Part shown: positions 45,574-45,780 of the stretch, piece after piece
How the letters are laid out: every line of letters begins with the position of its first letter
Numbering within the stretch: position 1 is the first letter of the stretch
DNA from: an uncultured bacterium
GTDB lineage: Bacteria > Patescibacteriota > Saccharimonadia > Saccharimonadales > Saccharimonadaceae
DNA length: 64,000 nucleotides
Assembly: GCA_903832635.1 (NCBI GenBank)
Contig: CAILCF010000002.1
Coordinates: forward strand, 7,665 to 71,664
Reading direction: 5' to 3'
Notes under the pieces: generated by a model
What the model was told of the DNA's origin: nothing
The model's database searches: none
What the model saw: only the letters and a program-made list of their open reading frames with translations
Position numbers and translations under genes: made by a program

Positions 45574-45650
45574 ATGGGCCAGTAGCTCAGCTGCCCAGAC
45601 AGCTTGCCTGTCTGAAAAATTATCAAGCGTCCAGATGCTCTAACCATTTA
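45574..45650 (+). pseudogene. tRNA-Lys(CTT) 5' fragment plus antisense D-arm copy
   Basis: atgggccagtagctcagctg (20 nt) is identical to 45702..45721. It is followed by hairpin cagacag-cttgc-ctgtctg and then gcgtccagatgctctaacca, the antisense of tggttagagcNtctg in the same tRNA. No complete cloverleaf can be drawn. Confidence 0.6.
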
Positions 45651-45703
45651 CAAAAGAATAATCTTATAATAGATTTGTACCTGTTAATTTATTCAAAACA
45701 TAT

Positions 45704-45780
45704 GGGCCAGTAGCTCAGCTGGTTAGAGCGTCTGCCTCTTAAGCAGAATGTCGTGGGTTCAAGTCCCACCTGGCCCTCCA
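45704..45780 (+). tRNA. tRNA-Lys(CTT), CCA encoded
   Basis: gggccag/ctggccc acceptor, tctgc-ctCTTaa-gcaga anticodon arm, gtggg-ttcaagt-cccac T-arm. Confidence 0.93.

Follow-up and report, generated by a model that had tools for sequence, protein, structure and literature searches.

A tRNA-leader module with a duplicated tRNA 5' end and an antisense D-arm upstream of tRNA-Lys(CTT) in an uncultured Saccharibacteria genome, and an apparently undescribed family of such modules in uncultured bacteria

The tRNA-Lys(CTT) gene of the window, by which is meant the whole 64,000-nucleotide stretch of DNA analyzed here, is intact at 45704–45780 (ARAGORN; Rfam tRNA, 74.8 bits) and has the same sequence as in five related genomes. 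Like all the features described below for this locus, it lies on the forward strand. Its native promoter (45533–45561), identified from the sequence and from seven relatives, consists of TTGCGC (45533–45538), a gap of 17 nt and TACAAT (45556–45561), and is followed by the native leader cattttttgtaaat (45562–45575), which adjoins nucleotide 1 of the tRNA in the relatives L143, L140, and L142. In the window the two are separated, and a 20-nt sequence (ATGGGCCAGTAGCTCAGCTG) occurs twice, exactly and 128 nt apart, at 45574–45593 and 45702–45721. The upstream copy, referred to here as the decoy, is composed of "at" and tRNA nucleotides 1–18 and ends after linear nucleotide 18, between the two conserved G's of the D-loop. 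The second is composed of "at" (45702–45703) and the first 18 nt of the intact gene. An earlier note, made from the sequence alone, had reported this duplication and its end inside the D-loop, and both were found as described. The promoter that it proposed is likewise present and kept in the seven relatives; a consensus scan, however, did not flag it, and the -35 box agrees with the consensus at only three of six positions.

The 108 nt between the repeats contain no open reading frame of 40 or more amino acids and can be divided into a number of parts. The decoy is followed by a hairpin, HP1 (cagacag-cttgc-ctgtctg, 45596–45614), as the earlier note had read it, by an A-rich linker (aaaaattatca, 45615–45625) in the place of the A/T-rich linker of the family described below, and by a short sense copy of tRNA nucleotides 24–29 (AGCGTC, 45626–45631). 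The latter, missing from the first description, is predicted by folding to pair with the antisense that it precedes, forming HP2. The antisense itself (CAGATGCTCTAACCA, 45632–45646) is an inverted repeat (I1, 15 nt, 93% complementary to 45720–45734) of tRNA nucleotides 17–31, covering the 3' part of the D-loop, the 3' strand of the D-stem and the start of the anticodon stem. It matches the D-arm at 14 of 15 positions, and the lone mismatch would become a G·U pair in RNA. The description of this piece as antisense to the next segment of the tRNA thus stands for the match, and not for the position, as it overlaps the end of the copied segment. The unit is closed by an inverted copy of the native leader plus GG (ccatttacaaaa, 45644–45655), pairing with 45566–45577. 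This inverted repeat (I2, TTTTGTAAATGG/CCATTTACAAAA) is 12 nt long and 100% matched, with an extension matching at 17 of 19 positions; it contains the bracket ttgtaaatgg/ccatttacaa of the earlier note, which is a perfect inverted repeat. The left arm belongs to the gene's native leader, which means that the right arm repeats nearby sequence in inverted orientation. An AT-rich spacer (45656–45701) completes the unit and carries, by motif scan, the family motif GTACCTGTT (45677–45685), 27 nt before the tRNA.

The 106 nt around the unit fold at -31.9 kcal/mol (z = -4.4). A search of 44900–46200 with Rfam 15 covariance models gave only the tRNA and microRNA-type noise at E ≤ 1, and no riboswitch, T-box, ribozyme, intron, or sRNA match to the unit was obtained. 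It was also considered whether the insert might carry the promoter and tRNA complete in inverted orientation, and this was rejected, since only the 19-nt leader segment aligns, with a score of 26 against a shuffle maximum of 27. Of the eight tRNAs of the window, one carries a leader module.

Neither faulty assembly nor chance can account for the duplication. Logan contigs from four separate lake-water runs cover 45300 to about 45750–45781 with no differences, two ENA assemblies are identical over 45100–46100, and the expectation for the ATGGGCCAGTAGCTCAGCTG repeat by chance was zero (100 shuffles, two mismatches allowed). With its 20 nt, the repeat falls below the word length of the assembler. 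The contigs of the four runs show neither an excision junction nor an empty allele, contigs being a form of data that drops rare variants. A second contig of lower depth, from runs X2 and X3, matches the promoter, leader, and first tRNA bases of window 45539–45593 with two differences; in X2 it extends 10 nt past 45593, where the insert begins, and in X3 it stops at 45581. It probably derives from a co-occurring relative, perhaps one with an uninterrupted gene.

To place the unit in its lineage, related loci were identified by a MurB-anchored scan, which placed the organism among the Saccharibacteria, and four closer relatives were added through MurB homologs. The relatives compared are seven loci with tRNA-Lys(CTT) near murB and tRNA-Arg(TCG), their MurB proteins being 70–88% identical. 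In all seven (L139, L140, L142, L143, L008, L004, and L007) the promoter (TTGYRC, 17 nt, TACAAT) and leader run into an uninterrupted tRNA-Lys(CTT), the site being empty and the leader measuring 13–29 nt (six of the seven have about 14 nt). The native leader of the window is identical in L143 and differs by 1 nt in L140 and L142, with the tRNA directly after it in all three. L143 equals the window over the 48 nt preceding the tRNA, so that the window reads as the L143 sequence plus 128 bases. Among the eight related genomes, the module is thus found at this site in the window only. In the MurB tree the window falls inside a clade (support 96/98) with five empty-site relatives and L001, which has no tRNA-Lys(CTT) nearby, and the sister clade (97/95) likewise has empty sites. 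In L140 (3507–3583) and L142 (2749–2825), the tRNA-Lys(CTT) carries a compensatory D-stem change, G10A/C25T (GTAACTC...GAGTG), which shows that covariation in the D-stem of this tRNA is tolerated.

Such a distribution would need one gain at the locus or at least two precise losses. Most likely, judging from these alignments, the module was gained in the lineage of the window, and recently at this locus; the case for gain falls short of proof because a 20-nt direct repeat would ease precise deletion. As the upstream 18-nt copy is contiguous with the promoter and leader conserved in the relatives, it is the original, displaced 5' end of the gene, and it follows that the second copy, which completes the functional gene, arrived with the extra DNA. 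The extra DNA may equivalently be described as an insertion after tRNA nucleotide 18 or as one just before nucleotide 1. It comprises the hairpin, A-rich linker, 6-nt sense piece, antisense D-arm, AT-rich spacer, and a second "at" with nucleotides 1–18, and leaves the tRNA gene whole and the original 5' end as a promoter-side fragment.

Metagenome contigs were scanned for a pattern consisting of TAGCTCAG, then the antisense D-arm core, then the full D-arm. As the pattern demanded the antisense core and one D-arm type, decayed copies lie outside the resulting count of at least 120 matching contigs, with at least 123 instances and at least 107 distinct modules. The unit is thus not unique to this locus. 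The tRNAs behind the modules comprise at least 78 distinct sequences and at least 13 anticodon types, including those for Arg, His, Met, Lys, Ile, Thr, Ala, and Val. In the layout common to the family, a copy of tRNA nucleotides 1–18/19 comes first and a hairpin next; an A-rich linker then leads to a short sense piece and the antisense D-arm, and ~55 nt of spacer separate the latter from the intact tRNA. Among the matches listed, the copy ends at nucleotide 18/19 in 108 of 123 instances (88%) and starts at nucleotide 1 or within 1 nt of it in 58 of 123, and the period from copy to tRNA is 97–138 nt (median 111, 123 instances), the value in the window being 128. A motif, [GC]YACMYTW, occurs in 36 of the 107 spacers listed at a median of 24 nt from tRNA nucleotide 1; the window has it as GTACCTGT at 45677, 27 nt before nucleotide 1. 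The window also has the copy next to the promoter, the hairpin with its A-rich linker, and the sense and antisense D-arm pieces. It is concluded that the unit is real and belongs, as a canonical member, to a family of tRNA-leader inserts that is widespread in uncultured bacteria and apparently undescribed. No description of such leader modules was found in the literature and there is no Rfam family for them; in nine module-bearing loci, Rfam matches were to tRNA and rRNA only.

In sequence, the modules mostly agree with the tRNA before which they stand. Nucleotides 1–7 were not part of the scan pattern; nevertheless, among the matches listed, 87 of 107 modules have the exact acceptor strand of their own tRNA in the 7 nt before the first TAGCTCAG, and a further 16 are one base off, the control against other tRNAs giving a mean of 4.0 mismatches. 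The W of GGWTAGAGC is concordant between the antisense and its own tRNA in 107 of 107 modules, and where the antisense reaches into the D-loop, the base at the Y position follows the own tRNA in 78 concordant cases, both among the matches listed. The L102 module, before a tRNA-Ala with the rare GATTAGAGC variant, carries GCTCTAATC. The hairpin of sense and antisense pieces occurs across the family, its arms following each module's own tRNA. A specificity of the antisense for its tRNA beyond the D-arm was looked for and not found (2.9 nt against 2.7 nt in the control).

Other parts of the modules are common to different tRNAs. Hairpin types are found in modules of different tRNA species, and the 21-nt HP1 stretch cccagacagcttgcctgtctg is identical in the L108 module and matches at 20 of 21 positions in that of L035, where the tRNA-Lys(CTT) is diverged and the spacers of both modules can hardly be aligned with that of the window. 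In a single contig (L058), two modules 3.8 kb apart stand before unrelated tRNAs; they have the linker and ~80% of the spacer in common, and in each the acceptor copy, D-loop base, and sense and antisense arms match its own tRNA. Tandem arrays also occur, six modules being preceded by another module among the matches listed. An inverted copy of the native leader was found only in the window among the 106 modules tested from the matches listed, the others having at most 7 nt, as in the control. In one locus (L092:1–1396), a leader module lies inside an rRNA operon, in the order 16S end, tRNA-Ala, module, tRNA-Ile, tRNA-Val, 23S start.

The position of promoters was next compared across the family. 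Among the matches listed, 33 of 105 modules have an extended -10 box (TGnTAnAAT) 8–32 nt ahead of the decoy, on its upstream side, against only 2 of 105 with one in the spacer, and the repeat is outside the promoter in 31 of the 33 cases. This would place the modules inside the transcribed leader. No terminator follows the unit in the window, and with the native promoter upstream the expected product is a pre-tRNA with a leader of ~136 nt and not the separate RNA of roughly 90 nt that the earlier note had in view. On the sequence evidence, then, the native promoter would now be expected to make a pre-tRNA with a structured ~136-nt leader, which RNase P would cut off at the real nucleotide 1. 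In the search for RNA evidence, a high-coverage environmental relative shared words at the tRNA level only. The 5' edge of the repeat lies at or near tRNA nucleotide 1; its identification with the transcription start was dismissed, there being no correlation with promoter distance (r = -0.05).

In silico folding was used to examine what such leaders might do. Among the matches listed, 99 of 107 whole modules are more stable than shuffles. In predictions for the leader without the tRNA, pairing involves 69% of the bases of the antisense, the figure for flank-shuffled controls being 55% (p = 2e-12). When leader and tRNA are folded together, the predicted lowest-energy structure places the antisense on the real D-arm in 102 of 107 modules among the matches listed, and in these predicted folds the real acceptor stem is never formed. 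The window is one such case, the trapped state being predicted at -68.7 kcal/mol and the sum of the independent folds at -66.5 kcal/mol. Compensating changes in the hairpin stems (GCC/GGC, GGCG/CGCC, GTC/GAC, and GCA/TGC) can be read from the sequences, and RNAalifold on a poor MAFFT alignment of 17 modules gave one clearly covarying pair. On paper the design is bistable, with a masked antisense and a decoy 5' end. The antisense may be largely masked within the leader by the short sense piece and a closing helix, to which decoy D-loop bases would contribute in most family members and the inverted local leader copy in the window; once unmasked, it could trap the real D-arm, and the decoy acceptor strand could replace the real one. 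A helix of decoy D-loop bases with the 3' part of the antisense has at least five pairs in 54 of 107 predicted folds among the matches listed. It cannot form in the window, where the antisense ends in CCA followed by tttac, and the 12-bp leader helix takes its place.

The same tRNA-Lys(CTT) of the window is followed by a T-loop-split trailer module (45838–45969), made up of an antisense T-arm, a sense T 5' half, a conserved core, and a copy of the T 3' half. The T-loop trailers of Saccharibacteria resemble the leader modules in that a copy of the tRNA end reaches as far as an elbow loop and is accompanied by a folded insert, by a short sense piece with an antisense across the loop, and by an intact tRNA; in both, the spacer lies between the antisense and the intact tRNA, and both are present or absent among close relatives. 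Read from the outer end toward the tRNA the parts come in the same order, which agrees with the view of the earlier note that the unit is the D-loop counterpart of the trailers. Its further statement that one half of the tRNA is inverted does not hold, the inverted piece being an extra antisense copy and not a displaced half. Its proposal that a single process acts on both elbow loops is no more than a possibility. The cores of the two kinds of module differ and have no sequence similarity: those of the two trailer families of this genome read gagaactgcc...gcaagg...ggggtcgcg... or gtcgcgg...agtgcag...caaacggagg, and none was found in 45560–45703 by BLAST against the window and loci. Both kinds occur on the same tRNA in 6 of 96 module-bearing tRNAs among the matches listed. 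A trailer stands behind tRNA-Lys(CTT) in L004, L008, L142, and the window, and not in L007, L139, L140, or L143.

A number of further observations were made around these tRNA genes. In L004 (2340–2660) and L008 (2330–2650), on the minus strands, the trailer lies between perfect direct repeats of ~60 nt that run from the 3' half of the T-loop to the end of the terminator; the L142 trailer locus is likewise on the minus strand, and L007 has the matching empty trailer site, with the same terminator as L004. A hairpin-forming sequence of 21 nt (TTAGAAGGACGGACCTTCTAA) is identical at 20781–20801 and 45476–45496, where it closes the Pro-TGG and Arg-TCG trailer regions. None would be expected by chance, and it is also present in L008 (twice), L140, and L142. 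There is in addition a second conserved leader element before several tRNAs and modules, comprising a hairpin, aaacgag..., and then ...ttccgacga directly before nucleotide 1, which lies upstream of the decoy in L023, L029, L045, L064, L073, L097, and L137. The leader of the window's tRNA-Pro(TGG) (21116–21264, minus strand) ends in gttcagacga and has aaaccaagctttagctgttt in common with L045. The contigs L016, L014, L017, and L018 end at window 45601, 45873–45875, and 45960, at or next to the leader and trailer modules; as several independent assemblies of this organism break at or near modules, the leader and trailer repeats fragment assemblies.

In considering how the modules arise, it is possible to begin with the view that each is a by-product of error-prone repair or replication, generated anew from its own gene by microhomology-mediated template switching at D-arm hairpins and then decaying, with neither element identity nor function. 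Direct plus inverted duplications are typical of template switching, and the window does contain locally templated inverted sequence joined at a CC/GG microhomology. Hairpin types, linker, and spacer motif, however, are shared by modules that belong to different organisms and stand at different tRNAs, the position of the break is sharply defined (nucleotide 18/19 in 88% of instances among the matches listed), and the 21-nt hairpin stretch recurs unchanged in L108 and at 20 of 21 positions in L035. By these shared non-tRNA cores the by-product explanation is largely refuted, and we consider it very unlikely. Harder still to credit is an attL/attR remnant, left when a larger integrative element or genomic island recombined with the 5' part of the tRNA gene and then lost its cargo. 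tRNA genes are classic integration sites, and direct repeats of a tRNA end do flank the extra DNA here, but only 108 nt without an ORF lie between them, and the small size recurs (period of 97–138 nt in 123 instances among the matches listed). The duplicated end is moreover the 5' and not the 3' one, the viral contigs contain no match, and an internal antisense with a decoy is foreign to att sites.

The main rival is that the modules exert a cis-acting control of tRNA maturation, through an antisense/decoy leader kept for the benefit of the cell. By default, the decoy and short sense piece of the nascent leader would mask the antisense; upon a trigger such as temperature, a hairpin-bound protein, or the speed of transcription, the antisense would capture the nascent tRNA by its D-arm and the acceptor strand of the decoy would pair with the tRNA 3' end, so that RNase P is blocked or misdirected and the tRNA supply tuned. 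In its favor are the predicted folds, with the D-arm trapped in 102 of 107 modules among the matches listed, the two states nearly equal in the window, and the antisense masked when the leader is folded alone. The antisense also follows the D-loop variants of its own tRNA, including the rare GATTAGAGC in L102, the hairpin stems covary, and the promoter positions would put the modules inside the transcribed leader. It is less easily reconciled with their sporadic occurrence (one of eight related genomes at the locus and one of eight tRNAs in the window), with a copy number that varies through tandem arrays, with the same hairpin types before unrelated tRNAs and two paralogous copies in one genome, or with an antisense that is not tRNA-specific beyond the conserved D-arm (2.9 nt against 2.7 nt in the control). 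We regard such control as possible but doubtful.

The reading that we favor, and to which we would give an even chance, sees in the module a selfish insert that encodes no protein and multiplies by copy-and-paste. It would spread between tRNA genes and between genomes, with its tRNA-derived arms re-templated from each target, and would survive because it regenerates the tRNA and keeps its own antisense masked. The likely route would be template-switching or fold-back DNA synthesis at a break in the D-loop, or an RNA intermediate. Element-like behavior is indicated by the L058 pair, the shared hairpin types, the tandem arrays, and the presence of a module on one of the eight tRNAs of the window. 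The empty sites of the seven relatives, the size and regularity of the family, the promoters upstream of the decoy, and the masked antisense likewise count in favor of this reading. The inverted leader copy in the window is fused to the antisense at a CC/GG microhomology, and as this leader is lineage-specific, local sequence was copied in reverse when the allele was formed; such reverse copying of the local leader points to template switching or fold-back synthesis. Against the copy-and-paste reading must be counted that no excision junction was present in the contigs of the four runs, that no enzyme gene linked to the modules was found and that the scan pattern had no match in 2.9 million viral contigs. 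A history of loss only would need just two or more precise deletions, a near-identical decoy and stable folds are also to be expected of a functional RNA, and the identical or nearly identical hairpin with diverged spacers in L108 and L035 is no less compatible with ancient vertical descent under selection than with recent transfer. The selfish-insert and maturation-control explanations are not mutually exclusive. As a separate matter, an ORF at 30570–31268 was considered as a LAGLIDADG nuclease, and this was rejected, Pfam giving only N-terminal HTH domains (HTH_23, E = 1e-6).

A more specific version, which we think unlikely, is that the module is a protein-less homing element with its own antisense as guide, forming with the T-loop trailers a new class of structure-guided mobile elements. 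As RNA or single-stranded DNA, the module would base-pair to a tRNA gene or a tRNA transcript around the D-arm and direct a break or template switch to G18/G19, and it would be copied in together with fresh tRNA nucleotides 1–18; both elbow loops of tRNA genes could then be safe harbors in many bacterial phyla.

Several known systems resemble the leader modules in part. The integrative elements and genomic islands that target tRNA genes are kilobases in length and carry an integrase gene, and it is the 3' part of the tRNA that they duplicate in regenerating the gene. As in the leader modules, extra DNA enters a tRNA gene and a duplicated segment keeps the gene whole; the module of the window, by contrast, has 108 nt, no ORF, and a 5' duplication, and its pattern is not found in the viral contigs. 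Engineered antisense or riboswitch control of the RNase P processing of pre-tRNA has been achieved in synthetic constructs, in which, as might be the case for the leader modules, pairing of the leader with the tRNA body decides the fold of the RNase P substrate. No natural leader with a decoy plus an antisense was found in the literature. In E. coli, tRNA-linked repeats (TLRs; Egan and Landy, 1978; Rudd, 1999) carry an 18–19-bp copy of the adjacent tRNA end and are described as short non-coding units in tRNA or rRNA operons, often in tandem and without an ORF, the mechanism of their origin being given as unexplained (PMC8144298). By that description, the two are alike in being short and non-coding, in copying a tRNA end, in often occurring in tandem and in lacking an ORF. 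TLRs as described there lie behind the gene and repeat its 3' end, whereas leader modules lie before it and repeat the 5' end as far as the D-loop, the repeat in the window unit being the 5' end of the downstream tRNA; leader modules also have, compared with the TLRs of that description, an antisense D-arm and a covarying hairpin. The Dada elements, DNA transposons found in eukaryotes, use a single fixed target position within tRNA genes, the TAGCTC box of the D-arm being among these targets, and have a DDE transposase, 6–7-bp target duplications, and multicopy targets, with the gene not restored (PMC3706591). They thus resemble leader modules in inserting inside tRNA genes, and differ from them in encoding a transposase and in leaving the gene unrestored.

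If the modules are mobile, they would represent a non-coding element of very small size, able to enter single-copy essential genes harmlessly by rebuilding them; the way in which they are copied would be new biology and might explain the 45-year-old puzzle of the E. coli tRNA-linked repeats. If they are regulatory, they would be the first natural leaders to control tRNA maturation by a built-in antisense and decoy. In either case, the modules create pseudo-tRNA fragments and contigs end at or near leader and trailer modules, and they would place more than 100 nt of structured RNA before many tRNAs in genome-reduced bacteria, including tRNAs within rRNA operons as in L092.
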